This document shows, piece by piece, positions 1,313 through 54,200 of a stretch of 64,000 bases of DNA. Under the pieces are notes generated by a model. That model saw only the letters and a program-made list of their open reading frames with translations. It made no database searches and had not been told where the DNA came from. Position 1 is the first letter of the stretch. Each line of letters opens with the position of its first letter. The DNA lies in contig CAYMVZ010000001.1 of assembly GCA_964394335.1 (NCBI GenBank), positions 7,360-71,359 on the forward strand. Reading direction: 5' to 3'. This DNA comes from an uncultured Nitrospinota bacterium. GTDB taxonomy: Bacteria > Nitrospinota > Nitrospinia > CAJXCL01. The position numbers and the translations under genes were made by a program.

Positions 1313-3415
1313 ATGAAATTTACAAAAAGTATTTTAAAATACTCTTTTTTTATCGTAATCTTGCTGTTTGGTTCGTTAGAAAATGCTCAAGCGTATATTG
1401 GGCCGGGAGCGGGCTTTGCTTTTATATCTTCCTTTTTTATTCTTTTCATCACATTTTGTTTAGCGGTATTTTACTTTATTACCTGGCCTTTTCGGTTTGC
1501 TTTTAAAGCGTCAGTCCGGAAGATAAGACAAAATAAAGTAAAAAGCGAAATCAAGCAAGTGGTGGTTGTCGGTTTAGATGGCATGGATCCTAAACTGACA
1601 AAAAAGTTTATGGAAAAGGGGAAACTTCCAACTTTCCAGAGATTAAAGGAAGAGGGAACATTTCTTCCCTTGTCTTCAAGTAATCCGCCAATTTCTCCTG
1701 TTGCCTGGTCTTCATTTATGACAGGAGTTGACCCTTCTTACCATAACATCTTTGATTTCTTCACGCGGAACCCACTTACTTATTTACCCATGCTCTCTTC
1801 CGCTGAGATAGGAACAGCTTCAAAAGTTGTTCCTCTTGGTAAGTATAACATTCCTCTTGGAAAGCCAAGGGTGAAACTTTTAAGAAAGAGTAAGCCCTTT
1901 TGGACAATCCTGGGTGAATACGGTGTTTTCAGTTCTGTTATTCGTGTTCCGATTACTTTTCCGCCGGAAAAGTTTCATGGTGTACTCTTATCCGGGATGT
2001 GCGTACCGGATTTGAAAGGATCTCAAGGTATGTTTTCTTTTTATACTACGAACGGAACATATGTGAAAAATGAAACAGGAGGCGCACGTCACCCTGTTAC
2101 ACTGAAAGATAATACGATTGATACCTATGTCTCTGGACCTAATAATTTTCTTCTTAAGGAGGGAGACGAGCTAAAAGTTCCGCTTTCCATAAAAATTAGT
2201 AAAGATAATAAAAAGGCTGAAATCAATATTTGCCGCCAGAGTTTTGAGTTAGAACCTGAAACCTATTCACCCTGGATCAAAATAACTTTCCGTCCTGGTC
2301 TGGGAATGAAAATCACTGGAATTTGCCGTTTTTATATAAAGAGTTTAACTCCGAATTTTGAACTTTATGTTTCACCCATTAACATTGATCCTGAAAAACC
2401 TGCCCTCCCGATATCGCATCCATTTATTTACGCTACGTATCTTTCTAAACTGACAGGATGTTATGGCACTCTAGGACTTTCTGAAGACACATGGGCGCTG
2501 AATGAAGGCGTTATTGATGAAAATAGTTTTTTAAAACAGACCGATCTCCTTTATGAGGAGCGTGAAAATATGTTCTTTAAAGTATTAGACAGGTCTCCAA
2601 AAGGGTTTTGTGTCTGTGTGTTTGATACTTTAGATCGCGTTCAGCATATGTTCTTCCGCTGTCTTGATAAAAACCATCCTGCAAACAATGGAAAGGAAAC
2701 AAAAAAATATGAAAATGTAATTGAGGATTATTATGTTCGAACGGACAAACTTCTTCAAAGGGTTTTAGAAAAGACGGACGATAAAACTGTTGTTATGGTT
2801 ATGTCCGACCATGGGTTTACTCAGTTTAAAAGAGGGGTTAACCTTAACACATGGTTTTTTCAAAACGGATATCTCGCTCTCAAAGATGGTAAAACCATAA
2901 GCAGAGATTGGTTTATGGATGTCGACTGGAAAAAAACCAGGGCGTTCTCTCTTGCCCTGGCAGGGATTTTTATAAATAGAAAGGGAAGGGAATCGCATGG
3001 AATTGTTAACGATGGAGATGAACTGCAAAACTTAAAACAGGAGTTAATACAAAAACTATCAGGATTTATAGATGAAGATGCAGGAAAAACAGCAATCCGG
3101 GAAATTAGAGACACGGAAAGCATATATTCCGGGCCTTACACCGCTGACGCACCCGACCTTTTAGTTGGTTATAACGCAGGTTACAGAACTTCATGGGCAT
3201 GTGCTACCGGGCAGGTGACAGAATCGGTGTTTGAAGATAACACCAGACACTGGAGTGGAGACCACGCTGTTGACCCGAAAATTGTTCCTGGTGTACTTTT
3301 TGTAAATAAAAAAATTAATACACGATCCCCAGACATAAAAAACATCGCACCCACTATAATAAAGTTGTTTGGTATCCCCATTCCCTCCTATATGAAAGGA
3401 AAGCCTTTTATTTAG
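1313..3415 (+). CDS. Membrane-anchored alkaline-phosphatase-superfamily enzyme, type I phosphodiesterase / nucleotide pyrophosphatase-like.
   Basis: N-terminal signal/TM segment. VVVGLDGMDP metal-binding start of the alkaline-phosphatase fold. Nucleophile-region pattern SSSNPPISPVAWSSFMTG. Paralog of 7011..8990. Confidence 0.6.
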   Translation: MKFTKSILKYSFFIVILLFGSLENAQAYIGPGAGFAFISSFFILFITFCLAVFYFITWPFRFAFKASVRKIRQNKVKSEIKQVVVVGLDGMDPKLTKKFMEKGKLPTFQRLKEEGTFLPLSSSNPPISPVAWSSFMTGVDPSYHNIFDFFTRNPLTYLPMLSSAEIGTASKVVPLGKYNIPLGKPRVKLLRKSKPFWTILGEYGVFSSVIRVPITFPPEKFHGVLLSGMCVPDLKGSQGMFSFYTTNGTYVKNETGGARHPVTLKDNTIDTYVSGPNNFLLKEGDELKVPLSIKISKDNKKAEINICRQSFELEPETYSPWIKITFRPGLGMKITGICRFYIKSLTPNFELYVSPINIDPEKPALPISHPFIYATYLSKLTGCYGTLGLSEDTWALNEGVIDENSFLKQTDLLYEERENMFFKVLDRSPKGFCVCVFDTLDRVQHMFFRCLDKNHPANNGKETKKYENVIEDYYVRTDKLLQRVLEKTDDKTVVMVMSDHGFTQFKRGVNLNTWFFQNGYLALKDGKTISRDWFMDVDWKKTRAFSLALAGIFINRKGRESHGIVNDGDELQNLKQELIQKLSGFIDEDAGKTAIREIRDTESIYSGPYTADAPDLLVGYNAGYRTSWACATGQVTESVFEDNTRHWSGDHAVDPKIVPGVLFVNKKINTRSPDIKNIAPTIIKLFGIPIPSYMKGKPFI

Positions 3416-7010: not shown

Positions 7011-8990
7011 TTGATGAAGAAAAAAAACATTTTTGAAAATTTGAACTGGAAAATATTAGCGTTGATAGTGTTTGTAATATCACTTGGCTATTATGGTTTT
7101 AGTGAAAGCGCTTTTAAGAATGTTCAAAAAAAAGTACTGGTAATCGGTTTTGACGGAATGGACCCTAAACTTCTTGAACGCCTGGTTCAGGAGGGGAAAA
7201 TGCCGAATTTCGAACGCCTGATGAAAGCAGGTGACTTCAAACCTCTTAAGACAAGCATACCACCGCAAAGCCCTGTAGCCTGGTCTAATTTTATAACAGG
7301 AATGAACCCGGGCGGGCACGGTATTTTTGACTTTATCCATAGAGAAATTAAGACTATGATTCCTTATCTTTCGACTTCAAAAACAGAGGACGCAAAAAAA
7401 AAGATTACCATAGGAGACTGGGTAATACCTCTTTCAAGCGGAAAAGTCACGTTATTGAGACATGGGAAAGCTTTTTGGGAAGTTTTGGAAGATTATGGAG
7501 TGCCAACTACAATTTTTCGAGCTCCGGCAAATTTTCCGCCAATAAATGTTCCGGTGAATCAACTTTCCGGCATGGGAACTCCTGATATCCAGGGAACTTA
7601 TGGAACATTTTCTTTTTATACTGATGGAGACACAGGTGAATTTGAAGACGTTTCCGGGGGCAAGGTTTTCCCCGTCAGGGTAATGAATGATAAGGTTGAA
7701 GCCAAAATATTTGGTCCACAAAACGTATTCAAAAAAAGTAAACCGCAAACCTTTATTGATTTTTCAGTTTATTTAGATCCGGAAAATCCTGTGGCCAAAA
7801 TCACTGTTCAGGATCATCAAATTCTACTTAAAGAAGGGGAATGGAGTGATTGGGTTGCGTTGGACTTTGAACTTATTCCTTTTTTGGAAAGTGTGAGAGG
7901 CATCTGCCGTTTTTATTTAAAAGAGGTTCATCCGGATTTTAAATTATATATCACGCCGATTAATATTGATCCTTCTTCTCCGGCAATGCCCATTTCAACA
8001 CCTGTTAATTACTCGGAGGAACTGTACGAAGAAATAGGCTATTTTTATACCCAGGGAATACCGGAGGATACAAAAGCATTAACGGAAAAAATCTTTGATG
8101 ACAGCGAGTTTCTTCAACAGGCTAAAATTGTTTTTAACGAAGAACTGGACATGTTCGATCATGAGTTAAGCCGGTTTAAAAAAGGTGTCCTGTTTTTTTA
8201 TTTCGGACGAGTGGATCAACTGTCACACATGTTCTGGCGGACTATGGATTTAGATCATCCGGCTCATGAACCAGCGACTGAACATCGCATGGTAATTGAA
8301 AATATATATCTGGAAGCAGATGCTGTCCTTAAAAAAGCTCTTAATATACTGGATAGCAATACCACTATCATTGTTCTATCCGATCATGGTTTTGCGCCAT
8401 TTTACAGGAGCTTCAATCTCAACACATGGCTTAAAAATGAGGGATATGTTTCGCTTGTTAATGATTTGGCGGGAGGTTTTTTGCAGAATGTCGACTGGTC
8501 TCAAACCCGTGCATACGGCATGGGATTTAACGGGTTATATTTGAATCTTGAAGGGCGGGAAGGAAATGGTATAGTGCAACCCGGAGTTGAGAAGAATGCG
8601 CTAATGGAGGAAATATCGAAAAAATTGCTTGCCATTCGTGATTTGGAAACAGGGAAACAGGTAATTTCCAGGGTTTACAGAGCTGAGGAGATATATAAAG
8701 GGCAATATGTAAAAGAAGCCCCTGATCTTATTATTGGCTACAATAAAGGTTTCCGCGCATCTACTGAAACAGTGTTAGGCAAATTTCCTAAGGGACTTTT
8801 AAAAGATAATGTCGATAAATGGAGCGGTGATCATTTAATTGAAGCTAAATTTGTGCCGGGGATTCTTCTTTCTAATAAGAAAATCCAATCTGCTAATCCG
8901 GCTTTATATGATATTGCGCCGACAATATTAGCTGAGTTTGGTATTCCTAAACAGGAGTGGATGGTTGGAAAGAGGGTATTTAACAATTAG
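7011..8990 (+). CDS. Membrane-anchored alkaline-phosphatase-superfamily enzyme (phosphodiesterase / nucleotide pyrophosphatase-like); paralog of 1313..3415.
   Basis: VLVIGFDGMDPKLLERL, TSIPPQSPVAWSNFITG, LSDHGF. Collinear similarity to ORF 1313..3415 along the whole length. Confidence 0.6.
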   Translation: MMKKKNIFENLNWKILALIVFVISLGYYGFSESAFKNVQKKVLVIGFDGMDPKLLERLVQEGKMPNFERLMKAGDFKPLKTSIPPQSPVAWSNFITGMNPGGHGIFDFIHREIKTMIPYLSTSKTEDAKKKITIGDWVIPLSSGKVTLLRHGKAFWEVLEDYGVPTTIFRAPANFPPINVPVNQLSGMGTPDIQGTYGTFSFYTDGDTGEFEDVSGGKVFPVRVMNDKVEAKIFGPQNVFKKSKPQTFIDFSVYLDPENPVAKITVQDHQILLKEGEWSDWVALDFELIPFLESVRGICRFYLKEVHPDFKLYITPINIDPSSPAMPISTPVNYSEELYEEIGYFYTQGIPEDTKALTEKIFDDSEFLQQAKIVFNEELDMFDHELSRFKKGVLFFYFGRVDQLSHMFWRTMDLDHPAHEPATEHRMVIENIYLEADAVLKKALNILDSNTTIIVLSDHGFAPFYRSFNLNTWLKNEGYVSLVNDLAGGFLQNVDWSQTRAYGMGFNGLYLNLEGREGNGIVQPGVEKNALMEEISKKLLAIRDLETGKQVISRVYRAEEIYKGQYVKEAPDLIIGYNKGFRASTETVLGKFPKGLLKDNVDKWSGDHLIEAKFVPGILLSNKKIQSANPALYDIAPTILAEFGIPKQEWMVGKRVFNN

Positions 8991-12631: not shown

Positions 12632-12673
12632 CCTGCTTTTGCAGGAAGAAACTCCAGCGGGGAGCTTCAATTT
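12632..12673 (+). repeat. Mini-copy of the dispersed repeat family (hairpin + GGGGAGCTTCAATT module) just after yidC.
   Basis: cctgcttttgcagg...cggggagcttcaattt matches the 3' module of copies at 31545 and 37689. Confidence 0.4.
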
Positions 12674-12740
12674 TTATGCGTTGGTAGAAATTCCTTTTTC
12701 TACACACAGTATGGATTATTAAAACAAAGGAGGTTTTTAT

Positions 12741-13265: not shown

Positions 13266-14837
13266 ATGCATACCGAAGATACTATTTCTGCCATTTCCAC
13301 TCCGTTAGGAAAGGGGGGCATAGGAATAGTCCGGCTCAGCGGTACTCTCTCTCTCCAGATAGTAAAAAGAACCTTTGTTTGTCTTAACGGCAATATAAAT
13401 GCTCTTTCAGTCTCTCATAAAGTTTATCCCGGCAAAATAATAGACCCCTCTACAAAAAAAGCGATAGATGAAGTGCTGGTTACTATAATGAAAACCCCTA
13501 ATTCTTACACAAAGGAAGATGTTGTGGAGATCAGTTGCCATGGCGGGATGGCGGTATTGTCGAAAGTTCTTGATTTGACTTTAAAAGAGGGCGCGCGCTT
13601 GGCTTTGCCCGGTGAGTTTACCAAAAGAGCGTTTCTTAACGGTCGTATTGATCTCACCCAGGCGGAAGCTGTAATTGACATTATAAATGCTAAAACCGAA
13701 AGCAGTCTTTTTAATACAGTAAGCCAGCTGAACGGTTCTGTTTCAAATGAGATTGAAAGCATTAGATCCCTTCTCGTAGACGCATCTTCAAAGCTGGAAC
13801 TGTCTATTGACTTTTCAGAGGAAGATGTTCCGACCCAGCCTTTAGAAGAAATAAAAAAATCACTTATAGACGCAAAAGAAAGAATAGAATCATTGGTTGA
13901 TTCATACAGTAGTGGACGTCTTTTAAGGGAAGGGATTAAGGTGGTTATTGCCGGAAGAACTAACGCAGGCAAATCAAGCCTGTTTAATTTGCTGCTTAAA
14001 AAAGATCGTTCTATTGTTACACATTATCCAGGCACCACACGGGATTTTATTGAAGAAGAGCTGTCATTAGAAGGGGTGACGTATAAAATTTTTGATACTG
14101 CCGGTATCCGCAAGGTGGCAGGGCCACAGCCACAATTCGGCAGGAAAGCCGAATTGGACGGATTTCAAAGAAAGGCCGCCCGAAGGGTTGAGGCCAGGGA
14201 TGGCCAAAATCAAATAGGGCCACCGCCCTCTTGCCTAACAAAACCTTTGCTAAAAAAAAACAAATATACAGATTTGCAGCACATATCCAACCATGAGATT
14301 GAGTCCGAAGGGATAGCAAGATCATACGAACTAATTGAAAATGCGGATATTACTTTATTAATAATACCTGCGTCCGAGGACTTGACTGAAGAAGATATCT
14401 TTCTTATAAGCACCATCAATAAAAAAAACAAAGAATGCTTGTATGTTTTAAACAAAATTGATTTACAGCAGCAGGTTGATTCAAAACGAATATCTGAAAT
14501 TTCCGGAATAGCGTCTGAAAAAATATTAAAAATATCGGTGAAGAAAAATATTGGAATCAATCAATTAAAAAACAGGATAAAACAATTGATCACCGATAAT
14601 CAGGCTGGCCTGGACACAGAGAAAACCGTAATTTGCAATGTGCGTCACAAAAATTTATTAGACAAGGCATTAGAGTCAGTCAAAACCGCCAAAGACGCTT
14701 GCGTGAAAAAGGCTTCTGAAGAATTCATTACCTTTGATGTTTCAAAGGCGTTAAATTCTTTGGATGAGATAACCGGACAGTCTTACTCAGATGAGGTTTT
14801 AGATAAAATATTTAATGAGTTTTGTATTGGAAAATAG
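13266..14837 (+). CDS. mnmE: tRNA modification GTPase MnmE (TrmE), carrying a ~60 aa in-frame insertion after switch II.
   Basis: N-terminal domain. G motifs GRTNAGKSS / DTAGIR. C-terminal FCIGK. 523 aa versus ~455 typical. Confidence 0.9.
   Translation: MHTEDTISAISTPLGKGGIGIVRLSGTLSLQIVKRTFVCLNGNINALSVSHKVYPGKIIDPSTKKAIDEVLVTIMKTPNSYTKEDVVEISCHGGMAVLSKVLDLTLKEGARLALPGEFTKRAFLNGRIDLTQAEAVIDIINAKTESSLFNTVSQLNGSVSNEIESIRSLLVDASSKLELSIDFSEEDVPTQPLEEIKKSLIDAKERIESLVDSYSSGRLLREGIKVVIAGRTNAGKSSLFNLLLKKDRSIVTHYPGTTRDFIEEELSLEGVTYKIFDTAGIRKVAGPQPQFGRKAELDGFQRKAARRVEARDGQNQIGPPPSCLTKPLLKKNKYTDLQHISNHEIESEGIARSYELIENADITLLIIPASEDLTEEDIFLISTINKKNKECLYVLNKIDLQQQVDSKRISEISGIASEKILKISVKKNIGINQLKNRIKQLITDNQAGLDTEKTVICNVRHKNLLDKALESVKTAKDACVKKASEEFITFDVSKALNSLDEITGQSYSDEVLDKIFNEFCIGK
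14111..14295 (-). repeat. In-frame, reverse-orientation copy of the dispersed repeat family inserted within the mnmE coding sequence.
   Basis: ccgaattggacgg...aaaggccgcccgaagggttgaggccagggatggc is near-identical to the reverse complement of 37530-37590 (ggcctcaacccttcgggcggctttcc...caattcgg). Local GC-rich, hairpin-rich. Confidence 0.6.
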
Positions 14838-16368: not shown

Positions 16369-16484
16369 TTGATATTTTTTTTATATCAGACAATTTAAAC
16401 CAAAACAACGAAATTGTCAATAGCCCAAAAAGCTTATTATTCAGATATTTAAACATGGATAGCACGTGCATTCCTGTTTTTTTT

Positions 16485-16506
16485 CCCGCAGGGAGCTTCA
16501 ACAATT
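16485..16506 (+). repeat. Mini-copy of the repeat-family 3' module (cgcagggagcttcaacaatt).
   Basis: Shares the GGGAGCTTCAA core with the other copies. Confidence 0.3.
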
Positions 16507-16731
16507 ATCTAATGTTAAGCAAATTTTTTAGGAATTCACCCTAACATACCAAAAGTTTTCTCATGCCCATCCTACCATCCCATCAAAAATAGCTTTTTGG
16601 CTGCGGCCATGCCGCGCTAAACTGCGTACACATAGCAAAATAAATGGGGTCAGGCGGATTCGATAAAGCATAATATTCCTTAAAGTTTATGATATAATAT
16701 ACCGTTTTTAAAAAAAGGCCTAAAATTACTA

Positions 16732-18395: not shown

Positions 18396-20114
18396 ATGAA
18401 TAACAAAATTGAGTCAATAGAACAAATCTTGCTGAAAGAAAAAATGATTTCCGAAAAAATGTTGCAAGAATTGCAGACCAGGAAAATCACGAGCGGAAAC
18501 CATATCGGAAAATATTTGGTAGATATGGGGTATATCCATGAAGAAGATCTAACAAAAGCTATAAGCAAGCAGCTGAATATCGCTTGTCTTAAAAAAAGGG
18601 ACTATCCCGAGTCTCCTGTCCCCATTGAAGATTTAAATATTCCATTAAACTATTTAATTGAGCACAAATGTTTGCCTGTAAAACTGGATAAAGACAAGCT
18701 TACGATTGCCATGGTAGATCCATTGGATTTTTATACTATTGACAACCTTAAATTGACCCTCGGCTTCAATGTAGAAGTTTGCCTTTCCCCTGAGAAAGAT
18801 ATTATTGAAACGCTTGAACATTGGTATGGAAGCGGTGCATCTGTCATGGAACGAATAGTGGGAAACATGGGAGAAGAGGAATTAGAACTTTTGAGTTCCT
18901 CTGATTCACAAGATGTGGAGCATTTAAAAGACATGGCTTCTGAAGCGCCGGTTATTAAACTGGTAAATTTAATTATCAGCAGGGCTGTAGAAATTGAGGC
19001 CAGCGATATTCATTTTGAGCCTTTTGAAAGCGATTTGAGAATTAGATATCGTATTGATGGTGTGTTGCATGATATGGAATCTCCTACCAAGCGACTTCAG
19101 AATGCTATTACATCCAGGATAAAGATTATGGCAAAACTTAATATTGCCGAGCGCCGCTTGCCCCAGGATGGCCGTATTAAGCACAGGGTGTCAGGTAAAG
19201 AAATAGATATGCGGGTATCCACAATTCCTACCATTTATGGTGAAAGTGTAGTGTTAAGAATACTGGACCGCGGGAATGTGGTTTTAGATTTGACCAAACT
19301 TGGATTTCCCGCAGATTCTTTAAAAAGATTTGATAACATCATAAGCAAACCTTATGGTATGCTGCTGGTCACAGGCCCTACCGGGAGTGGAAAAACAACG
19401 ACATTATATGCTTCTTTAAATAAATTAAATTCCTCCGAAAAGAAAATAATAACCATTGAAGATCCCATTGAGTACCAACTTCACGGTGTAAATCAGATTC
19501 ACGTTAAACCTCAAATTGGCTTAACGTTTTCCAGCGGTCTTCGCTCCATTGTTAGGCAGGACCCGGATATTATAATGTTAGGGGAAATAAGAGATGCCGA
19601 AACAGCGGACATAGCGATTCAGGCAGCGTTGACCGGTCATATGGTTTTTAGCACTGTGCATACCAATGATTCTGCAGGGGCAATTACGCGACTTTCAGAC
19701 ATGGGAATTGAACACTACTTAATGGCTTCTGCCCTGGTAGGAGTTTTGGCTCAGAGGCTGGTTCGTAAAATCTGTTCCCATTGCAAAAAGCTTGCTAAAA
19801 TTAGCAAAAAGAGTTTGGAGGAAATGGATTCAGAAATAAAAGACATTTTAGATGTTAATAATCTCTATGAAGGAGAAGGTTGTGAAAAATGCAACCGAAC
19901 GGGATATCGAGGAAGAATAGGGATTTATGAGCTGCTTTTAATTCATGAGGAAATTCATGATATGATTCTTAATAAAACAAGTTCTGTACATATCAAGGAA
20001 AAAGCGCGATTACTGGGAATGACCACATTGCGAAGAGACGGCTGGCAAAAAGTAAAAGATGGTGTTACATCTGTTTCAGAAATTTACCGGGTTACATTGG
20101 AAGAGGAAATATAA
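18396..20114 (+). CDS. gspE: Type II secretion ATPase GspE.
   Basis: T2SSE_N-like N-terminal domain. Walker A GPTGSGKTT. Tetracysteine CSHC...CEKC. Confidence 0.85.
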   Translation: MNNKIESIEQILLKEKMISEKMLQELQTRKITSGNHIGKYLVDMGYIHEEDLTKAISKQLNIACLKKRDYPESPVPIEDLNIPLNYLIEHKCLPVKLDKDKLTIAMVDPLDFYTIDNLKLTLGFNVEVCLSPEKDIIETLEHWYGSGASVMERIVGNMGEEELELLSSSDSQDVEHLKDMASEAPVIKLVNLIISRAVEIEASDIHFEPFESDLRIRYRIDGVLHDMESPTKRLQNAITSRIKIMAKLNIAERRLPQDGRIKHRVSGKEIDMRVSTIPTIYGESVVLRILDRGNVVLDLTKLGFPADSLKRFDNIISKPYGMLLVTGPTGSGKTTTLYASLNKLNSSEKKIITIEDPIEYQLHGVNQIHVKPQIGLTFSSGLRSIVRQDPDIIMLGEIRDAETADIAIQAALTGHMVFSTVHTNDSAGAITRLSDMGIEHYLMASALVGVLAQRLVRKICSHCKKLAKISKKSLEEMDSEIKDILDVNNLYEGEGCEKCNRTGYRGRIGIYELLLIHEEIHDMILNKTSSVHIKEKARLLGMTTLRRDGWQKVKDGVTSVSEIYRVTLEEEI

Positions 20115-26563: not shown

Positions 26564-26612
26564 TGAAGCTCCCCTTAGCAAGCTACTGGGAATGCGCTCG
26601 CTAAACACTTTC
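26564..26612 (-). repeat. Mini-copy (reverse orientation) of the dispersed repeat core gaaagtgtttagcgagcgcattc...ggggagcttcaa.
   Basis: Reverse complement matches 37597-37620 joined to the GGAGCTTCAA module. Confidence 0.45.
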
Positions 26613-26638
26613 ATTAAAAATGAAGAGGATAAATCAGA

Positions 26639-31238: not shown

Positions 31239-31286
31239 ACACGATTTATATACTGCACCTACCCAAAAGAGAATCTATTTGATTTC

Positions 31287-31590
31287 GGCAAAGCTGAGCT
31301 TAGCTCTGCCTTCCATGGCCTCAACTCGTTGGACGGCTTTCCTTCGGAAGCCGTCCAATTAGCTCCGCCCCGCTAAGCGTGGCTCCGCAGATTCGCCCAA
31401 AGGAGAGTAGCTACGAAGACTTGAATTCGGTTTCCCCTACTGAAAGTGTTTAGCGAGTGCATTCTCAGCAGCGTGCTGCGGGAATAGTGAGCGAACTTGA
31501 AATAAATTTATACTCTACACTGAAGCTTCTCTGTTGCTTGCTACGGAGAGCTTCAATTGTGGTTGTGACCCGTGGCCACTCTGCGATCTC
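31287..31590 (+). repeat. Long copy A of the modular dispersed repeat, upstream of the hut operon.
   Basis: ggcaaagctgagcttagctctgcc...gaaagtgtttagcgagtgcattc...gagagcttcaattgtggttg. Collinear with 37507..37728 plus an ~80 nt extra insert. Confidence 0.6.
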
Positions 31591-36160: not shown

Positions 36161-37200
36161 ACTTCAAACCACATTATAAACCACCAGACAAAAATAGATG
36201 GCAGGGGCGGGTTGACCCGGATGAAAACAGCTTGAGGCTGCATCAAGTTATTCAGTTTCTTGATCTCAAAGAACTTCATGTAACAGAGGTTGCAACCCAA
36301 TATTGTCAATCCACTGAAAAGTATAAAAAGATTGCGCTCATCGGATTTTGCTGTGATGAGGGAATCCGAAGAAACAAGGGAAGGACTGGCGCGAGGGAAG
36401 GCGCGAGTGCCATCAGAAAAGCGCTTGTTGATATACCGATACATTTTAATGAAAAAGAGACTCTGGTTTTGGACGCCGGTGATATCCTTTATAAAGAGAG
36501 CGCAATAACTTCCGGCGAACCCCTCCTCTCCACACAACTTGCCTTATCCACTGCAATTCAAATCTTATTATCCAACGGGTTTTTTCCTATCATTCTCGGA
36601 GGCGGGCATGAGGTTGCGTTTGGTCATTTTCATGGAATCCACTCCTTTCTTCACTCTCGTGAAAACAATAAACCAATAAAGAACATAGGGATTATAAATT
36701 TTGACGCTCATTTCGATCTGAGAGCTTTTCAAAATAACCGGGGAACTTCAGGAACGCCTTTTCTCCAAATCGCGAAATTATGCGGACAAGAGCAGTTTCA
36801 TTATCTTTGTCTTGGAATTCAAAAAACAGCAAACACAAAAAAACTTTTCCATACTGCCGAAGAATTAGGAGTTCAATATATTATTGCGGATGAGATTAAT
36901 GAAAGGGAGCGGCAAACGGAAATTATAACTAAAATCGAAACCTTTATTCAAAAAAATGAATTCATTTACCTGACTATCTGTCTCGATGTTTTTGATTCCG
37001 CCTTTGCCCCGGGAGTCAGTGCACCGGCTTCAAACGGTCTGGTTCCTCAATATTTTTTCCCTATCATGAAGAAAATATTAAGTTCAAATAAGGTCATAGG
37101 TATGGATGTAGCTGAGTTATCTCCCGCACATGACATTGATCAACACACAGCCAAACTGGCTTCTTTGATATTTTTTAATTTAATATCAGAATCTCTATAA
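36157..37200 (+). CDS. hutG: Formiminoglutamase (arginase family).
   Basis: GGGHEVAFG, DAHFDL and SLDVFD manganese-ligand motifs; end of the hut operon. Confidence 0.8.
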   Translation: MNFKPHYKPPDKNRWQGRVDPDENSLRLHQVIQFLDLKELHVTEVATQYCQSTEKYKKIALIGFCCDEGIRRNKGRTGAREGASAIRKALVDIPIHFNEKETLVLDAGDILYKESAITSGEPLLSTQLALSTAIQILLSNGFFPIILGGGHEVAFGHFHGIHSFLHSRENNKPIKNIGIINFDAHFDLRAFQNNRGTSGTPFLQIAKLCGQEQFHYLCLGIQKTANTKKLFHTAEELGVQYIIADEINERERQTEIITKIETFIQKNEFIYLTICLDVFDSAFAPGVSAPASNGLVPQYFFPIMKKILSSNKVIGMDVAELSPAHDIDQHTAKLASLIFFNLISESL

Positions 37201-37506
37201 TAATTTAACCGCGGAGTACGCAGAGGAAAAAAATTTTTTTTATTCGTATTAATTTCAGCGTCCTCCACGTCCTCTGCGGTTAAGAACTTTGGGCGGAAGC
37301 CCTTTGGGTTGCGACAACTTGCCGCTCTATGTTATTCTGTATTACAAACTTGTTAAATTGTGTTTTTATAGCAAAGCTGAGCTTAGCTCTGCAAAGTTTT
37401 TTAATACACCCCGTCCCGGCGGGACACCCCTCTTGTTAGAGGGGAATTCTCTTCCTAAATTCCCCCTTAAAAAAGGGGGATAGAGGGAGTTGTAATTTTG
37501 ATTATC

Positions 37507-37728
37507 GGCAAAGCTGAGCTTAGCTCTGCCATACATGGCCTCAACCCTTCGGGCGGCTTTCCTTAGGAAACTGCCCAATTCGGTTTTCCGTACCGAAAGT
37601 GTTTAGCGAGCGCATTCACCGCAGCTTGCTGCGGGGTTAGCGAGTGAACTTAAAATAAAATCATACTCTACACTGAAGCTCTGCTACGAGGAGCTTCAAT
37701 TGTGGTTGCGGCCCTGCCGCTCTGCGGT
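37507..37728 (+). repeat. Long copy B of the modular dispersed repeat, downstream of the hut operon. Partial fragments also at 37275..37290 and 37370..37395.
   Basis: Collinear with 31287..31590 and shares all modules. Confidence 0.6.
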
Positions 37729-37752
37729 TAATAAGAAAAAGTATTTATAAAT

Positions 37753-38769
37753 ATGAAAACTGCAAAACAAAATTATCAAATCATCAAGGAGCTGGAATCT
37801 AAAGCAATAGAAAACCGGCCGCTTGATAATGAAGAAGCTGTTTTTCTCTCCAACCTGAATGACCAGGATATTTTTGACCTAATTGCTTCTGCTAACCGTA
37901 TCAGGGAAAAGTTTAAAGGTAAAAAAATCAGTCTTTGTTCTATTGTAAACGCAAAGTCAGGACGCTGTCAGGAAAACTGTATTTTTTGTTCCCAATCTAT
38001 CCATTTTAAAACAAACATTGATGAATACCCTTTGATTAATAGTGAAGAGATACTTCAAAAGGCTGATGAAGCCTTAAGCCATGGAGCTCAGAAGTTTGGA
38101 ATAGTTACAAGCGGCAAGACACTTAGCACAGAGCAGGAATTAAATGAAATCTGCAAGACCATTAAAACACTTAAAGAAGACGGCAAAATCCACCGTTGTG
38201 CTTCACTCGGAATGTTAGGCCGTGTCGAATTAATAAAACTAAAAGAAGCGGGTCTTGAAGAGTATCATCATAATCTCGAGACCGCGCGAAGTTATTTCCC
38301 GAAAATTTGCACAACACATAACTATGAAGAAGACGTCGAGACAGTAAAGACAGCAAAATCCATCGGCCTCAGAACCTGCTGCGGTGGAATTTTTGGATTA
38401 GGCGAGTCTCCTGAACAGCGAATAGAGTTAGCTTTTACATTAAGAGAATTAGACGTCGATTCCGTGCCGATAAATTTTTTGCATCCCATTAAGGGAACCG
38501 GGACAGAAAACCTTCCTCCATTAAAGCCGCTTGAGATTCTAAAGATCATTGCCATCTATCGTTTTCTACTCCCCGCGAAAGACATAAAAATTGCGGGGGG
38601 GAGAGAGCATAACCTGAGAGATTTTCAATCAATGATCTTCGCCGCCGGAGCAAATTCTACCATGGTAGGAAATTACTTGACTACCAAAGGCAGGGCTTAT
38701 CAGGACGATTTACAGATGATCAAAGACATGGGCTTAGAACCGGTCTCCAATGGATTTAAAATCTCTTAA
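37753..38769 (+). CDS. bioB: Biotin synthase.
   Basis: Radical SAM CQENCIFCSQ; 338 aa. Confidence 0.9.
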   Translation: MKTAKQNYQIIKELESKAIENRPLDNEEAVFLSNLNDQDIFDLIASANRIREKFKGKKISLCSIVNAKSGRCQENCIFCSQSIHFKTNIDEYPLINSEEILQKADEALSHGAQKFGIVTSGKTLSTEQELNEICKTIKTLKEDGKIHRCASLGMLGRVELIKLKEAGLEEYHHNLETARSYFPKICTTHNYEEDVETVKTAKSIGLRTCCGGIFGLGESPEQRIELAFTLRELDVDSVPINFLHPIKGTGTENLPPLKPLEILKIIAIYRFLLPAKDIKIAGGREHNLRDFQSMIFAAGANSTMVGNYLTTKGRAYQDDLQMIKDMGLEPVSNGFKIS

Positions 38770-38772
38770 AAT

Positions 38773-38900
38773 CGGGCTGTCCGAGAACAATGAAAGGGAG
38801 CATGTTGTCATTCTGAGCGATGCGAAGAATCTCATGTTTTCAATACGTTGCCAGTAGGAGATTCTTCGGCAAAGCCTCAGAATGACATTTTCGGACAGTC
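38773..38900. repeat. MITE-like long imperfect palindrome with TGTCATTCTGAGC...GCTCAGAATGACA arms.
   Basis: gggctgtccgag...tgtcattctgagcgatgcgaagaatctc // gagattcttcggcaaagcctcagaatgaca...tcggacagtc. Confidence 0.5.
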
Positions 38901-38948
38901 TAATATCAGGATTAGAGTTCATCATAGGAGTGTTAATCCCTAGTGTAC

Positions 38949-38985
38949 TCGCCCCTTATGTCATTCTGGTTCCCAATCAAGTTGG
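38949..38985. repeat. Small palindromic element atgtcattc-tgg-ttcccaa tcaag ttgggaa tgacat (same TIR family).
   Basis: Reverse-complement symmetry seen directly. Related copies at 3458..3475, 40713..40752 and 42246..42276. Confidence 0.45.
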
Positions 38986-39211
38986 GAATGACATTACCTG
39001 ATCGGGAATCTAGTTGAGCACTGATCGCTGGGGTTCGTTATTCTCCTTGGTCTTACCTGCCTGTGTTAATTCGTACCCCCATTGCAGAATTGCAAAAATA
39101 TCAGCCTATATTGGATAAATTTGCAATATCGCATTATAATCAATGGTTATAACTCCTAATTCAATAGCAAAATCACTTGACAAAAGATGTCATACATTGT
39201 AAACATGCCGT

Positions 39212-39481
39212 ATGGTTTTCTATGAAAGTGAAATCAAAAAGGCCGTAAAAAAAGGAACTATCCCCAAAAATGTATTTAAAAGATTTGATAATGTGTTTAT
39301 TTCTTTAGATATTACAAATGATTTAGCTCTTTTTGATATTAAAAAATTAAAGTCATCGGGGGAAAAAACTTACTATCGATTGAGGAAAGGAAAGTATAGA
39401 GCTTTTTTTTTGTCGAAAAGAAAAATTACTATGTAATTTCATTAGCTAAACGCGAGGAGGTATATAAAAAATGGGGGTAGT
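39212..39481 (+). pseudogene. RelE/ParE-superfamily (BrnT-like) toxin gene disrupted by a -1 frameshift in a T9 homopolymer (39403..39411).
   Basis: Annotated frame ends ...YRLRKGKYRAFFLSKRKITM. Adding one T gives ...YRAFFFVEKKNYYVISLAKREEVYKKWG, matching the conserved RelE C-terminus and overlapping the antitoxin start. Confidence 0.5.
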
Positions 39482-39689
39482 TTCGGTTAGATTTAACAAA
39501 GAGGAAGAAAAAATAATAAAAAAACTGTCGGACCATTTTCATGCTGATAAGTCAGCATTAATAAAAAAATCCTTATATGAGCTTTATGAAAATATGGAGG
39601 ATATTAGTATAATAAAAAAATATGAGGCAAAAGAGAAAAAAGGGAAAGTTGCATTTTTCACTGCTGATAAGATTTTAACGCATGATTAA
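39471..39689 (+). CDS. Ribbon-helix-helix antitoxin (BrnA/CopG-like).
   Basis: VSVRFNKEEEKIIKKLSD...KSALIKKSL RHH pattern, immediately downstream of the toxin. Confidence 0.5.
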   Translation: MGVVSVRFNKEEEKIIKKLSDHFHADKSALIKKSLYELYENMEDISIIKKYEAKEKKGKVAFFTADKILTHD

Positions 39690-39894
39690 AAGGTAAGGAG
39701 TTATAACCATCGCATCAAGACAGACGTGAAACAGCTTGTCGCCGTTCTATGCTTTGTCAGCTATCAAAGCTTTTCTGATATTCTATCGCATTCCAGTTAA
39801 GTTTCACGCTGCCTACGCGTGTCGTTAGATAAAAGGGGTCATCTTTCCTTGACTACATATATTTTAAAGCAGCAGTCAAATATCAATAAATCAG

Positions 39895-39925
39895 TTGTCG
39901 GGTGTCAGGTGTCAGGTGTCAGGAA
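39895..39925. repeat. Tandem heptamer repeat gtcRggt x4. A related degenerate copy is at 42296..42325.
   Basis: tcgggtgtcaggtgtcaggtgtcagg. Confidence 0.4.
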
Positions 39926-40051
39926 AAAATTTTCAATTTACAGTTATATCAAAAAGTCTCAAGTCTGTTTTTGACTCTATGGCAACGAAAAAAAGCCAGA
40001 AAATGCTTGCCACCTTCCGGCTCTTAGAAATTTAGTTTTGCTGAGGAATAA

Positions 40052-40450
40052 TTAGCGGTTTCCACGTCCTCCGCCAGGCCTGTCACGACGGCTCCCGCCA
40101 AAATCGCCACGTTTCTTGCCGCCACCAGGTCCGCCACCAGGTCCACCTCCACGTCCGCCACCGTAACCGCTTCTTTGTCCAACATATCCACCTGGTCGTT
40201 TACCCTTGGACTTTGGACGCGCTTCATTGACGGTAATAGTCTTACCACCCAGGTCAGTACCATTAAGTCCTTCAATGGCTTTCAAAGCCTCTTCCTTTTC
40301 AGGCATCTCCACAAAACCAAAACCTTTGGAACGGCCGCTATCTCGATCCACAATAATAGTTGCGGATTCAACTTTCCCATAAGTTTCAAAAGCGGCTTTC
40401 AGCTCGTCTTCTTTCAACTCGTAGCTAAGAGCACCAACAAATATTCTCAC
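40052..40450 (-). CDS. RRM-type RNA-binding protein with a glycine-rich C-terminus. GTG start with an upstream GGAGGG SD; the 165 aa track ORF is over-extended.
   Basis: RNP-2 IFVGAL and RNP-1 KGFGFVEM. RGG/G-rich tail. Confidence 0.8.
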   Translation of the reverse strand: MRIFVGALSYELKEDELKAAFETYGKVESATIIVDRDSGRSKGFGFVEMPEKEEALKAIEGLNGTDLGGKTITVNEARPKSKGKRPGGYVGQRSGYGGGRGGGPGGGPGGGKKRGDFGGSRRDRPGGGRGNR

Positions 40451-41066
40451 TATTTCCCTCCCTTTTTTTTGCCATAGTTCAGTCGAATCAAAAGTCTGTC
40501 CATGGCGTTGAAACATATATTGATGGCATCTTCTTTTTGCGGATACCATCCCTTAACCGTACTTTCATTCTATCAGAGGCGGGATCTAAAATCAAAAAAG
40601 GTTAATTTTTCAAAAAAGGAGGTTCAGAGCAACTGGCATTACTGCAAAAAATTTTCATAGCAAATCTCTAAAATGCCATTTACTAAGAGGAGCACAAAAT
40701 AGTTTACTCTGGATTCCCGATCAAGTCGGGAATGACAATTGTGTCATCCTTACTATCATTCCCGCTTAAGCGGGAATCTATCTTCTAATAGTTCAGTTGA
40801 AAAAATGTAAATAATAATATGCTTTCCTTAGTATATTTTTCTTCTTTGGATACATGATCAAGCTTGCAGGGCAAATTTATTAAAACTATATCTATCAAAT
40901 CATTTAGTCCTTATTTGTTTTTTAAAACCAAAATGGAGATATTGATTATGTCACGTTGTTATGATTGAATAGTTCAATGCCCACTGCGTATATTAATATC
41001 ACTACAAATTTATTATTAATAATTCTTAGCTTGGTCCGACACTAAACATAGTGTCTCAGTGTAGTC

Positions 41067-51989: not shown

Positions 51990-54200
51990 TCACAGAATGT
52001 GCTCTTCCCCGAGCACTGCAAGTTTTTTAGTAGCATCATTTAATCTCGACAAAAGAGAACTAATAATTTTAAACGAAATGTCCGGATAATTGTCCAATGT
52101 CTCTCTTATTTTATCACCAGGAAACACCTTAACAATGCTCTTTCCTTTTGAAATAATAGTAGCGTTTCTTGCGGTCCCCAGCAGAGCGCTCATCTCTCCA
52201 AAATATTCTCCTGGCTGGGAAATTTCCGAGATTTTGACGCCATCCTTTAATATTTCCAGTCTTCCCTGCATTAACTGGTAAAAATTGGTATCCGTATTTC
52301 CTTCGTTAATAATTAAATCATCGTTCTCAAAAATTAATTCATCTGGATTTAAAAGATAGCCAGGAAGAGCTTCCTTAACCAGTACTGTATTTTTTAAAAC
52401 CTCATCCACAGTAGTTGTTCCTTCTTTGACCTTTTGGATAGCCTCCATCCTTAAAGTTATCATCCCTTCCTTGATTGCGGTTTTTCTCAACTGGTCTTCC
52501 GGGACCTGGGCGGTAATAGCTTTTTTTACTTCTTCTGTAACCGTCATAATTTCATAAACCGCGACACGACCCTTGTATCCTTTTCCGTTGCATTTAGGGC
52601 ACCCTTTACCCCGCATAATTTTAATGTCGTCAATTTCTTTTTCATCAAACCCTATTCCTATTAAAAACTGTTTATCTTTTTTGACATTAGGGTCTTCTTC
52701 TTTGCAGTCTACACAAATGCGACGCATTAATCTCTGAGCGACTACCATGGTCAATGCAGAGGACACCATGTACCCCGGGATGCCAATATCTATAATTCTT
52801 CCTACTGTTGAAGGGCAGTCATTAGTATGCAGGGTGCTGAAAACGAGGTGTCCTGTCATAGCTGCTTTGATGGCGATTTCAGCTGTTTCCGCGTCTCTAA
52901 TTTCTCCTACCAGAATAATTTCCGGGTCTTGCCTTAAAAATGACTTCAAGGCAGCGGCAAAGGTCATCCCCACTTCATTTCGAACCAGAACCTGGTTAAT
53001 GCCGGGAAAGTTAAACTCAACAGGGTCTTCAGCAGTTAATATTTTCGTATCCACACTGTTAAGAGAGTTAATTGCGGAATAAAGCGTGGTTGTTTTACCA
53101 CTACCGGTCGGACCTGTAACCAGTACGAGCCCAAACGGCTGCTTAATAGCTTTTTCGAAATTTGCAAATCCCTCAACAGTAAAACCAAGTTTTGTGAGAT
53201 CAACATTTAAATTGCCCTTGTCCAAAATACGAAGAACAATGGATTCTCCAAATAAAGTCGGCAAAACAGAAACACGGAAGTCAACGGATTTGCTCTTTCC
53301 AAGACGCATTTTTATTCTGCCATCCTGTGGAACTCGTCTTTCGGCAATATTTAAATTGGATAGTATCTTAAACCTGGAAACTAAAGCATTCTTAATCTGG
53401 ATAGGAAGGTTAAGGGAGACATAAAGGGCTCCATCCTGTCTGTATCTCACACGAAACGTCTTTTCATATGGTTCGATGTGAATATCGCTGGCTCCGAGTC
53501 TAACAGCCTTTGTTAATATTCCATTTACCAGTTTAATAATCGGCGCTGCCTCTGCGGTCAGCTCATCTTTTATTTCCTCTTCTTCCTCTACAGTTACCTC
53601 ATCAGCAGCCTCAGAAACAAGGGAACCGATATCATCAACTTCCTTAATTTCTATTGCTGGTTCTCCTCCATCTTTTGAAATATCCTTAAAAAAACTTTTG
53701 TACTCCTCTTCACTAATCTTGTAATATTTTTTATATGCATTAATTATATCTTTTTCTTTTGAAACTACTGCTTTAATAGAAAGCTTGGTTAAAAGCTGAG
53801 TCTCTTCAATAGCTTCGTTATCAGTTGGGTCAGCCATAGCCAGAGTTAACACATCGTTGGCTACACGAATTGGAAACACCAGGTATTGTTTAGCCTGTTC
53901 ATAAGTTAAAATTTTCATTGTAGCCGGGTTAATCATTAATTCAGATATATTGACTATAGGATAATTGAGCTGACGGCTGAGAAACGACAAAAGCGTATCT
54001 TCATCGATATATCCAAGTTGAATAAGGACGTTTCCCATCTTGGCATCAATTTTTTTTCGTGCTGCAATAGCTTCATTCAGCTGATCTTTTGTAATCTGTC
54101 CTTCTTTCCTAAGCATCTCTCCAAGTTTTTCGTACTTTACCGCACTTTTGCTGACACTTTTTTTGAAAGAAGTTTTCCTTTCTGCAGTTGCTTGAGCCAT
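51990..54200 (-). CDS. PilB/GspE-family secretion ATPase fused to a C-terminal cNMP-binding domain.
   Basis: T2SSE_N-like N-terminus. GPTGSGKTT. CVDC...CPKC zinc motif. C-terminal GEYFGEMSALLGTARNATIIS cNMP signature. Confidence 0.8.
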   Translation of the reverse strand: MAQATAERKTSFKKSVSKSAVKYEKLGEMLRKEGQITKDQLNEAIAARKKIDAKMGNVLIQLGYIDEDTLLSFLSRQLNYPIVNISELMINPATMKILTYEQAKQYLVFPIRVANDVLTLAMADPTDNEAIEETQLLTKLSIKAVVSKEKDIINAYKKYYKISEEEYKSFFKDISKDGGEPAIEIKEVDDIGSLVSEAADEVTVEEEEEIKDELTAEAAPIIKLVNGILTKAVRLGASDIHIEPYEKTFRVRYRQDGALYVSLNLPIQIKNALVSRFKILSNLNIAERRVPQDGRIKMRLGKSKSVDFRVSVLPTLFGESIVLRILDKGNLNVDLTKLGFTVEGFANFEKAIKQPFGLVLVTGPTGSGKTTTLYSAINSLNSVDTKILTAEDPVEFNFPGINQVLVRNEVGMTFAAALKSFLRQDPEIILVGEIRDAETAEIAIKAAMTGHLVFSTLHTNDCPSTVGRIIDIGIPGYMVSSALTMVVAQRLMRRICVDCKEEDPNVKKDKQFLIGIGFDEKEIDDIKIMRGKGCPKCNGKGYKGRVAVYEIMTVTEEVKKAITAQVPEDQLRKTAIKEGMITLRMEAIQKVKEGTTTVDEVLKNTVLVKEALPGYLLNPDELIFENDDLIINEGNTDTNFYQLMQGRLEILKDGVKISEISQPGEYFGEMSALLGTARNATIISKGKSIVKVFPGDKIRETLDNYPDISFKIISSLLSRLNDATKKLAVLGEEHIL

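Follow-up and report, generated by a model that had tools for sequence, protein, structure and literature searches.

A probable in-frame copy of a dispersed hairpin-chain repeat in the switch II region of MnmE from an uncultured Nitrospinota bacterium

Repetitive extragenic palindromic (REP) sequences are GC-rich imperfect palindromes that carry GTAG 5' of the first hairpin, are by definition extragenic, and are mobilised by REP-associated tyrosine transposases (RAYT), which are Y1 enzymes of the HUH type. The route followed by IS200/IS605 elements and by REP-RAYT pairs comprises insertion 3' of a short specific target, recognition of subterminal hairpins and the possibility of precise excision. 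Rickettsia palindromic elements (RPE-1 to RPE-10) are small, structured, multi-copy repeats that are also fused in frame into conserved genes (work of Ogata et al. in 2000 and 2002, summarised in PMC2229807 and PMC10969869). They measure 105-146 bp and form one long stem-loop via terminal inverted repeats of ~12 bp (PMC2229807), with one conserved peptide per family (PMC10969869). In-frame intragenic copies are also described for bacterial miniature transposable elements with inverted repeats (MITEs), namely ERIC, the 107-bp Correia element, YPAL/RU-2 and the MITEs of Anabaena (PMC2229807, PMC10969869), and bacterial interspersed mosaic elements (BIMEs) are mentioned as well (PMC2229807). The colonisation of housekeeping genes by in-frame repeats has been regarded as a speciality of Rickettsia; here, it is met in abundant free-living ocean bacteria. 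The subject of this analysis is a stretch of 64,000 nucleotides (nt), hereafter the window, from an uncultured Nitrospinota bacterium, in which the gene mnmE carries an extra segment at positions 14114-14284. We consider it likely that this segment is a complete copy of a dispersed, non-autonomous hairpin-chain repeat that was inserted in mnmE and tolerated there, and that belongs to a family found in low-GC (~38%) marine metagenome-assembled genomes (MAGs) labelled Nitrospinota.

The host protein has the features of the tRNA-modification GTPase MnmE/TrmE, i.e., the Pfam domains TrmE_N (PF10396), MMR_HSR1 (PF01926) and MnmE_helical (PF12631), a G domain with motifs G1-G4 and the C-terminus FCIGK, while GxxNxGKS, DTAG, NKxD and FCIGK are invariant in the MnmE alignments. 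The gene lies in the usual neighbourhood rnpA-yidD-yidC-jag-mnmE, and its closest database relatives are proteins of marine MAGs labelled Nitrospinota, mostly 466 amino acids (aa) long. Relative to the nearest insert-free orthologs of this length, the protein of the window contains 57 additional residues, encoded by 171 nt, directly after DTAGIR. The phmmer alignments with 3GEE and 1XZP (E 1e-87) stop at query residue 283-284 and resume at 342, whereas the two chains run on across the break or skip at most two residues; since they are unbroken where the query breaks, the extra segment is a pure insertion relative to the known structures. An earlier note on this DNA had pointed out the segment, quoted its peptide correctly and remarked that the reading frame and the C-terminal CIGK are preserved, all of which stands. 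Its coordinates, 14111-14295, locate the insert but extend ~11 nt too far at the 3' end, and the refined limits correspond to the codon range 14112-14282 (K283-H339). The description as GC-rich and hairpin-dense also agrees with the data, GC content being 61% at 14100-14199 against 38% across the whole window, and the single-sequence folds of the insert having z-scores of -2.5 (RNA) and -3.9 (DNA).

The dispersed nature of the segment is evident from its copies elsewhere. Two intergenic sequences of CAJXCL01 match it over its full length, one between pntAA and pntAB (L052:3515-3680; 85.5% over 166 nt, E 3e-48) and the other at L105:2760-2945 (78% over 187 nt), and these whole-length matches indicate that the 171 nt are one complete element rather than a patchwork. 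Within the window, blastn aligns 14136-14204 with the reverse strand of 37528-37597 at 83-84% over 62-70 nt (E 1e-14), including one exact 22-mer; the similarity to the intergenic repeat at 37530-37590 claimed in the earlier note is hence genuine, but "almost identical" overstated it. A second partial copy lies at 31305-31361 (79% over 31308-31360), and the left end of the insert (14105-14137) matches 37698-37730. The 64-kb window, which is an unbiased sample, contains three element loci plus solitary modules (Table 1), whereas the 36 matches of an nhmmer profile in 247 kb come from the window and related loci chosen for carrying the repeat, hence a biased sample. Scanning contigs of species-representative genomes with the loose pattern GCCGYCCNANSRGTTGAGGCC gave at least 113 loci, mostly chance matches in high-GC genomes; real repeat copies among the matches listed amount to at least 18 loci from three low-GC MAGs, i.e., DASCNB01 ("Nitrospinota"), CAJXCL01 ("Nitrospirae") and CBDUII01. 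Metagenome contigs scanned with GGCAGGGCCRCANCCACAATT yielded 10 loci, six of them real (three being the same pntA spacer), by which three new left flanks were gained. Elements range from 75 to 400 nt and contain no long open reading frame (ORF). A gathering-threshold Rfam scan of the whole window, together with E-value scans of 14050-14350 and 37180-37780, returned only far-sub-threshold chance matches, so that the repeat is not a known RNA family. Moreover, a full-text literature search retrieved no description of such repeats in Nitrospinae. The family is previously undescribed and presumably unrelated in sequence to the Rickettsia elements, although the kind of element, an in-frame RPE-like repeat, is already known. 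The taxonomic labels of its carriers are inconsistent: one repeat-rich MAG is labelled "Nitrospirae", and an insert-bearing thiopurine methyltransferase (P0121, the same protein as L057:3912-4712) is assigned to "Gammaproteobacteria bacterium" at NCBI, while the neighbouring loci are Nitrospinota-type.

Table 1. Coordinates of the insert, its parts, related copies and allelic sites. Positions without a locus name refer to the window; the caret marks the insertion point. CDS, coding sequence; TPMT, thiopurine methyltransferase; SAM, S-adenosylmethionine; rSAM, radical-SAM/SPASM protein.
Feature	Position	Strand	Basis or remark
mnmE (trmE) CDS, insert-bearing, 523 aa	13266..14837	+	ORF list, Pfam, orthologs, PDB matches 3GEE and 1XZP
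Host target hexamer CCGCAa (CCGCAG in empty-site ortholog), element starts immediately 3'	14108..14113	+	L005 empty site ATCCGCAG^TTCC; YCRCAG also 5' of TPMT, rSAM and intergenic copies
Full-length long-form repeat element, 171 nt, translated K283-H339	14114..14284	+	Collinear L052/L105 matches, nhmmer 207 bits, ortholog DNA alignment
Left-end hairpin H1 GTGGC-agg-GCCAC; first GGGCCAC direct repeat at 14121	14115..14127	+	DNA fold; compensatory changes between subfamilies
81-nt core module with H2 (14134-14155), H3 (14156-14181), H4 (14192-14205) and family-invariant GGGTTGAGGCC; flanks CAAT/CAAAT	14136..14216	+	Codon alignment with L009/L010; presence/absence in rSAM gene; covariation
Hairpin H5 AGGGC-cacc-GCCCT; second GGGCCAC repeat at 14217, 96 nt from the first	14216..14229	+	DNA fold, motif positions, covariation
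Right-end region: degraded H6, A9 run, terminal ..GATTTGCAGCACAT (family consensus ..GATTTGCAGTACAG)	14238..14284	+	Alignments with L052, L105 and ortholog inserts
Solitary conserved part of ~110-nt module (..GAATGCGCTCGCTAAACACTTTC), intergenic	26571..26616	+	Inverted-repeat pairs I3, I4; module scan
Composite intergenic copy, TCGCAG before it at 31581-31586; boundaries approximate	31253..31580	-	Repeat families D1, D2, D10, D17; nhmmer; between leuA-like and aromatic amino-acid lyase genes
Adjacent short-form-like copy ATAGAG^CGGCAAGTTGTCGC...AAAGGGCTTCCGCCC; boundaries approximate	37262..37330	-	Sequence; LE2 motif match at 37301-37325
Composite intergenic long form with extra modules (~110-nt module, two GCAGAGCTAAGCTCAGCTTTGC palindromes, further hairpin), CCGCAG before it at 37722-37727; boundaries approximate	37337..37721	-	Sequence, blastn, module scan; between arginase-family and biotin-synthase-like genes
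mnmE allele, empty, GGCATCCGCAG^TTCCAAC	L005 (P0004)		Ortholog DNA alignment
mnmE allele, 75-nt insert	L006, L008		Ortholog DNA alignment
mnmE allele, 90-nt insert	L009, L010		Ortholog DNA alignment
mnmE allele, 171-nt insert	window		Ortholog DNA alignment
TPMT, in-frame copy	L057		TPMT Pfam domain split into two stretches
TPMT site, empty TTACCGCAG^GATATC	L125		
TPMT site, filled CCGCAG-AGCGGCCAAGGG...GCAGTACAG-GGTATC	L057		
DUF1848 protein, in-frame copy	L081		DUF1848 domain split into two stretches
SAM-dependent methyltransferase, in-frame copy	L043		
rSAM, in-frame copy	L105:6246-7181	-	Same gene also in L126:501-1490, L127, L128
rSAM site, empty TCTTCACAA^AGAACA	L128		
rSAM site, empty TGCTCGCAA^	L127		
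rSAM site, filled TCACAG-CGTGGCCAAGGGGCC...GCAGTACAG-AGGACA	L126		

The history of the insertion can be followed in the DNA of five mnmE orthologs aligned with the window, which provide an allele series (Table 1). All filled alleles have both ends in common (CAAGGTGGCAGGGCC... and ...ACAGATTTGCAGTACAG) and, in all five filled lineages, the same atypical left junction CGCAAGGTGGC (CCGCA-AG-GTGGC), whereas the family consensus is CCGCAG-AGCGGC. In a neighbour-joining tree of the proteins with the insert columns removed, the empty allele lies inside the filled clade, with 100% bootstrap for {window, P0001, P0002, P0004} and 99.8% on adding P0003 and P0005. The empty L005 differs little from the insert-bearing L006 (93.7% nt identity), with no divergent tract around the site. 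The common odd junction of the filled alleles together with the nested position of the empty one thus favours a single ancestral insertion that was later remodelled in frame and, in one case, cleanly lost. Judged by this alignment, the mnmE insertion is derived and polymorphic, and its absence in the nested L005 lineage is read as a clean loss; likewise, the 75-nt form is read as a further deletion of the 90-nt short form. A nested insertion of the long form into an older 75-nt insert was also considered and was rejected, the 75-nt form being without half of H5. The empty allele reads CCGCAG^TTCC and two loci show the 81-nt core either in place or missing, a pattern that slippage between short direct repeats or recombination could produce likewise. 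The alignment that the earlier note had proposed hence agrees with its idea of a lineage-specific insertion. Orthologs bearing the same ~60 aa on DNA unrelated to the repeat, named there as the outcome that would speak against a repeat, were not encountered, as the orthologs are empty or carry shorter derivatives. In L009, a related contig, the cluster rnpA-mnmE is bordered by integrase and Mor genes.

The family occurs in frame in at least four genes besides mnmE, recovered by ORF-context analysis and Pfam and all in sense orientation (Table 1). The TPMT allele with a 46-aa insert is present on 16 contigs, and ~95% nt-identical orthologs (221 aa) are without it. The rSAM gene displays a same-site series that runs from an insert-free allele through +25 and +30 to +52 aa, the last containing the 27-aa core, so that its long/short polymorphism parallels that of mnmE; Tara sample SAMEA2619970 yielded both the +52 allele (P0244) and one of the contigs with the window-type mnmE. 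All three forward frames are translated in one host or another, giving VAGPQPQFGRKAELDGF in mnmE, RQVAATTIRHGKPNWT in L043, L081 and P0244, and NCAKKTQFYKFA in L057 and L105, while intergenic copies mostly have stops in all frames. The use of different frames in different hosts, together with the stops in intergenic copies, indicates that the peptides are by-products of an element that acts at the DNA level, filtered by selection for read-through. The idea that the element is inherently open in all frames was rejected because of these stops in most frames of the intergenic copies.

According to alignments of about 20 copies, the family is a chain of local hairpins. H1 reads GCGGCAA-g-TTGCCGC or GTGGC-agg-GCCAC, H2 reads AATTCGG...CCGAATT (variant AATTTTA...TAAAATT), H3 is GGACGGTTTCC-gaa-GGAAAGCCGCCC, and H4 is GGCCATGGATGGCC, with the invariant GGGTTGAGGCC between H3 and H4 in the order listed; H5 follows as AGGGC-ttcc-GCCCT and H6 as AAAACTTC...GAAGTTTT or AAAATTGTG...CACAATTTT, after which the tail ends in ..TACAG. 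The left end of the family is AGCGGCAGGGCC.. and the right end ..GATTTGCAGTACAG. In the covariation analysis (alignment A3), 91.7% of cells are paired and nine pairs change on both sides (22 cells), values reached by only 0-2 of 500 shuffles, while controls with slid partners were 25-49% paired. A long-range helix suggested by RNAalifold (columns 37-41/98-102) lacked covariation and was dropped. Neither inspection of the ends nor the alignments and the RNA and DNA folds revealed terminal inverted repeats or end-to-end pairing, only local hairpins; the left end AGCGGCAGG does not match the reverse complement of the right end CTGTACTGC.

The family is also modular, comprising a left hairpin, an optional 81-nt core (H2-H4), further hairpins, a right end and other optional modules. 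The left end (LE), CORE, PAL, the ~110-nt module and the right end (RE) occur in varied combinations and nestings, and two optional modules, the palindrome GCAGAGCTAAGCTCAGCTTTGC and the ~110-nt unit, are both present in the window copies at 31.3 and 37.5 kb. Short forms without the 81-nt core have a common junction CCA^AA(T/G)GGG in three genes, i.e., mnmE (L009/L010), TPMT (L057) and rSAM (L105). A solitary 81-nt core is found at L057:5095-5202, directly after an apparent tRNA 3' end (GGTTCGATTCCCGCCGCCTCCACCA^CAATTCGG), and this position suggests that the core may have a target of its own, ..CCA. In addition, the motif TCC(A/C)GC(G/A)GGGAGCTTCAA recurs in the window at 12653-12677, after yidC, and at 16484-16508, near a GGDEF gene; it resembles the hairpin GAAGCTC...GAGCTTC that opens the ~110-nt module (31539-31563, 37682-37706) and may be a further solitary module or a terminator.

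Three empty/filled pairs, in mnmE, TPMT and rSAM, place the insertion point immediately 3' of a host YCRCAG (Table 1), a hexamer present at 12 independent left flanks, with one copy reading CCGTAG. Right ends read ..ACAG and are followed by nothing consistent on their 3' side. A second subfamily has the left flank ATAAAG and the right end ..TATAAG (e.g., L043 and L081). H1 stands 1-2 nt from the left end and H6 about 17 nt from the right end, the latter with the compensatory variants AAAACTTC/GAAGTTTT and AAAATTGTG/CACAATTTT. The one-sided host target, the subterminal hairpins, the lack of inverted repeats, the mosaic nesting and the apparently clean loss together point to a single-strand route. 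We tentatively propose, at somewhat less than an even chance, that the element moves by a HUH/Y1-transposase-type mechanism, as do the palindrome-associated transposable elements (PATEs) of IS200/IS605 or the REP/RAYT systems. A bolder version, which we hold to be rather doubtful, would see a nested pair of still-active modules, the outer targeting YCRCAG and the inner 81-nt core targeting ..CCA, that both insert into and excise cleanly from the coding sequences of a free-living marine bacterium via single-stranded DNA and HUH-type chemistry. Such modules would generate reversible in-frame length alleles (0/75/90/171 nt in mnmE; 0/+25/+30/+52 aa in rSAM), with the in-gene copies kept conserved by concerted evolution or nucleotide-level selection. 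If true, an RPE-like "protein-coding repeat" system with a readable mechanism of insertion and excision would be known for the first time outside Rickettsia.

Among described systems, REP/BIME or PATE-like elements, as a rule extragenic, are those that the Nitrospinota family resembles most in structure. With REP/BIME, it has in common GC-rich imperfect palindromes in an AT-richer genome, a short motif immediately 5' of the first hairpin (here YCRCAG), mosaic clusters of several motif types and the lack of terminal inverted repeats; unlike them, it stands in frame in at least five genes, and its 5' motif is host-derived in three cases. Like IS200/IS605 PATEs, it is inserted 3' of a specific 4-6-nt host target, has subterminal hairpins at both ends and no inverted repeats, may be lost cleanly, and shows a target-like sequence at the right end. 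However, its left hairpin begins only 1-2 nt after the target, target and right end both read CAG, as they also would with a target-site duplication, and no TnpA or TnpB was identified (292 kb, approximate TnpA query). The likeness to bacterial MITEs consists in small size (100-200 bp), non-autonomy, multiple copies without a transposase gene, highly structured transcripts and occasional in-frame fusions; MITEs, in contrast, have terminal inverted repeats and usually duplications of TA or other targets, whereas this family has neither terminal inverted repeats nor a palindromic target. The earlier note had likened the insert to RPEs, and this holds as a functional analogy, extended here by four more in-frame genes: both are multi-copy, structured elements of ~100-180 nt, intergenic as well as in frame in housekeeping genes, in which the gene remains functional and the peptide is tolerated. 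It does not hold as membership of an RPE family. The host is a free-living marine Nitrospinota-type bacterium and not Rickettsia, five or six local hairpins built from optional modules replace the one stem-loop or single palindrome, three frames are used instead of one conserved peptide, a clear one-sided target (YCRCAG) is present, and the mnmE insert occupies a catalytic switch region. Host, architecture and frames thus set the family apart from RPEs, which were compared by their published description.

In MnmE, the insert splits switch II at the junction of the residues equivalent to R275 and E276 (E. coli numbering), six residues before the catalytic E282 (E346 here); G349 and R352 correspond to E. 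coli G285 and R288. The earlier note had put it right after switch II, which is imprecise: it follows the G3 motif DTAGIR directly but interrupts the switch. The numbering and the switch II roles of R275, E282 and G285 are those described for E. coli MnmE, where helix Gα2 elongates and tilts in the K+- and GTP-dependent dimerisation of the G domains and R275 stabilises E282 (PMC3695501). E346 and G349 are invariant in 15 close orthologs and nearly invariant (at least 90%) in an alignment of 69 sequences. The ratio of nonsynonymous to synonymous substitution rates (dN/dS) of mnmE in the insert-bearing lineages lies between 0.11 and 0.25 for 466 codons and between 0.04 and 0.17 for the 40 codons on either side of the insert, whereas within the insert it scatters around 1 (0.3 to 3.8, small counts). 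Judging from these ratios, the insert-bearing gene is still functional and under purifying selection. AlphaFold2, run on the 69-sequence alignment, predicts the MnmE fold confidently, with a mean predicted local distance difference test (pLDDT) score of 78.8, while residues 285-341 score 27-38; in this model, the 57-residue insert is probably an unstructured loop near the catalytic site. The insert and all its derivatives in mnmE are stop-free and have lengths that are multiples of three, and the probability of an open frame for the shuffled insert is 0.058. The predicted tryptic peptides of the insert include AELDGFQR and DGQNQIGPPPSCLTKPLLK. Nine consecutive A stand in frame in the insert at 14253-14261 (CTA AAA AAA AAC), where the orthologs have seven; this run is a potential slippage or frameshift-prone site in an essential gene.

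The course of events proposed here starts with an element that landed in mnmE immediately 3' of the host CCGCAG. Its length, a multiple of three, and its one stop-free frame would let the ribosome read through, adding a 57-residue, probably disordered loop inside switch II, and the host gene has stayed functional under purifying selection. Sister lineages then remodelled the insert in frame, to a 90-nt form lacking the 81-nt core and to 75 nt, and one nested lineage has, in our reading, lost it. The site is striking, as the loop stands six residues from the catalytic Glu, in the switch that rearranges in K+-dependent dimerisation, in a gene under strong purifying selection. Moreover, allele series at three genes (empty, short and long, with further-shortened forms in two) combined with a one-sided target make both mobility and protein tolerance testable. 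On the practical side, such inserts lengthen proteins and can mislead the annotation, binning and homology modelling of Nitrospinota MAGs.

Several points weigh against parts of this interpretation. Read-through by the ribosome is something that we infer from frame conservation. The in-gene copies were found in loci chosen for holding the repeat, which biases their frequency upward. With approximate sequences of IS608 TnpA and E. coli RAYT as queries, which makes for a weak test, tblastn detected no transposase at E<1 in 292 kb, and the 3-nt CAG common to target and right end could be an ordinary DDE target-site duplication. The 81-nt core, flanked by CAAT/CAAAT, could have been lost by replication slippage rather than by enzymatic excision. 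Finally, the insert is more conserved than neutral drift predicts: between L009 and L010, 5 of 90 nt of the insert are changed, compared with 16% of the gene core (dS 0.69), and between L006 and L010, 5 of 75 nt, compared with 17%. Given this conservation in deep pairs, a neutral passenger inherited vertically does not suffice by itself as an explanation. The low divergence may be due to gene conversion by ectopic copies, to recent lateral spread or to a role at the nucleotide level. Regarding the search for a mobilising enzyme, Pfam also gave no Y1_Tnp or other transposase domain among the 10 window ORFs scanned, and the module scan yielded no autonomous copy, i.e., no left and right ends separated by an ORF.

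The most resilient of the alternatives, though an unlikely one, is a classical MITE moved by a DDE transposase that produces a 3-bp CAG duplication at a preferred target. In all three empty/filled pairs, CAG at the 3' end of the element echoes the CAG (or CAA) that precedes the insert in the host, and a switch of the left flank between subfamilies is accompanied by one of the right end (CAG...CAG and ATAAAG...TATAAG), as expected of duplicated targets; a small, multi-copy and non-coding element would also suit this origin. Nevertheless, CAG on both sides is equally the pattern expected if target and element each end in CAG, and the right end has no counterpart of YCR, which occupies positions -4 to -6 of the left flank. 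Moreover, a one-sided target of about six nt on the 5' side, with nothing consistent 3', is atypical for DDE enzymes, and the ends inspected lack terminal inverted repeats, the folds being local hairpins only.

A somewhat less probable view is that the mnmE loop, or its DNA or RNA, is no tolerated passenger but has been exapted and is now selected, e.g., for the tuning of G-domain dimerisation, for GTPase timing or as a nucleic-acid signal. The persistence of inserts in five lineages with mnmE dS up to 0.9, the lower divergence of the insert than of the flanking gene in the deep pairs L009-L010 and L006-L010, and the position in the mechanistically critical switch II (PMC3695501) are all in line with it. 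However, ectopic gene conversion from other copies could account for the low divergence, and, despite that low divergence, H6 is degraded in the mnmE copies and dN/dS in the insert is about 1. Furthermore, shortening has occurred twice, one nested lineage is without the insert, AlphaFold assigns it no fold, and other genes use other frames.

With repeated, independent insertion of the long, short and 75-nt variants at a CCGCAG hotspot of mnmE, no excision would be needed for the nested empty allele, and the low insert divergence would be explained too. Strong target specificity, the existence of short and long forms elsewhere and the same polymorphism in the rSAM gene would fit such a hotspot. 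Its probability is nonetheless small, because the five filled alleles have in common both the atypical junction CCGCA-AG-GTGGC, instead of CCGCAG-AGCGGC as in the family, and the same degraded H6 arm, which points to common descent.

It is very improbable that the insert is removed before or during translation, as an intron-like sequence, as a ribozyme or by ribosomal bypass, to leave an MnmE of normal length. A GC-rich, strongly structured segment within an AT-rich gene bears a superficial likeness to the bypassed GC-rich inserts of some yeast mitochondria. However, every in-gene copy and derivative keeps the frame and is stop-free, which would be unnecessary if it were removed, and an intein or a group I/II intron would be much larger than this element. 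Beyond MnmE, Pfam matches nothing in the 57 aa, which, together with the lack of any near-threshold Rfam match, means that features of an intein or a self-splicing intron are absent. Lastly, although repeats can mislead assemblers, the chance that a chimeric contig or faulty binning joined the repeat into mnmE is negligible, since the identical 523-aa protein occurs with the same neighbours on 6 contigs from independent assemblies (ENA, JGI and Tara; marine metagenome), mnmE orthologs carry related inserts at the same codon, and the TPMT insert allele is found on 16 contigs.

Some further observations concern other parts of the window. Similar pairs of 57-86 nt within ORFs, namely 18944-19029 with 53462-53547 and 1991-2047 with 7566-7622 (one inverted at 74%, the other direct at 70%), most likely reflect paralogous genes (e.g., the neighbouring ORFs 1313-3415 and 7011-8990), unrelated to the repeat family. 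At 62002-62436 (-), a 144-aa ORF, probably a truncated integrase, has only the N-terminal SAM-like domain of phage-type integrases (PF13495). Two small ORFs side by side at 39212-39689 (+; 74 and 72 aa), the first of which ends with ..YYRLRKGKYRAFF, reminiscent of RelE/ParE-type toxins, may constitute a toxin-antitoxin pair. At 40052-40549 (-), an RRM_1 (RNA recognition motif) protein with a long Gly/Arg-rich tail lies beside a ~1.3-kb stretch (38770-40050) of small ORFs only.

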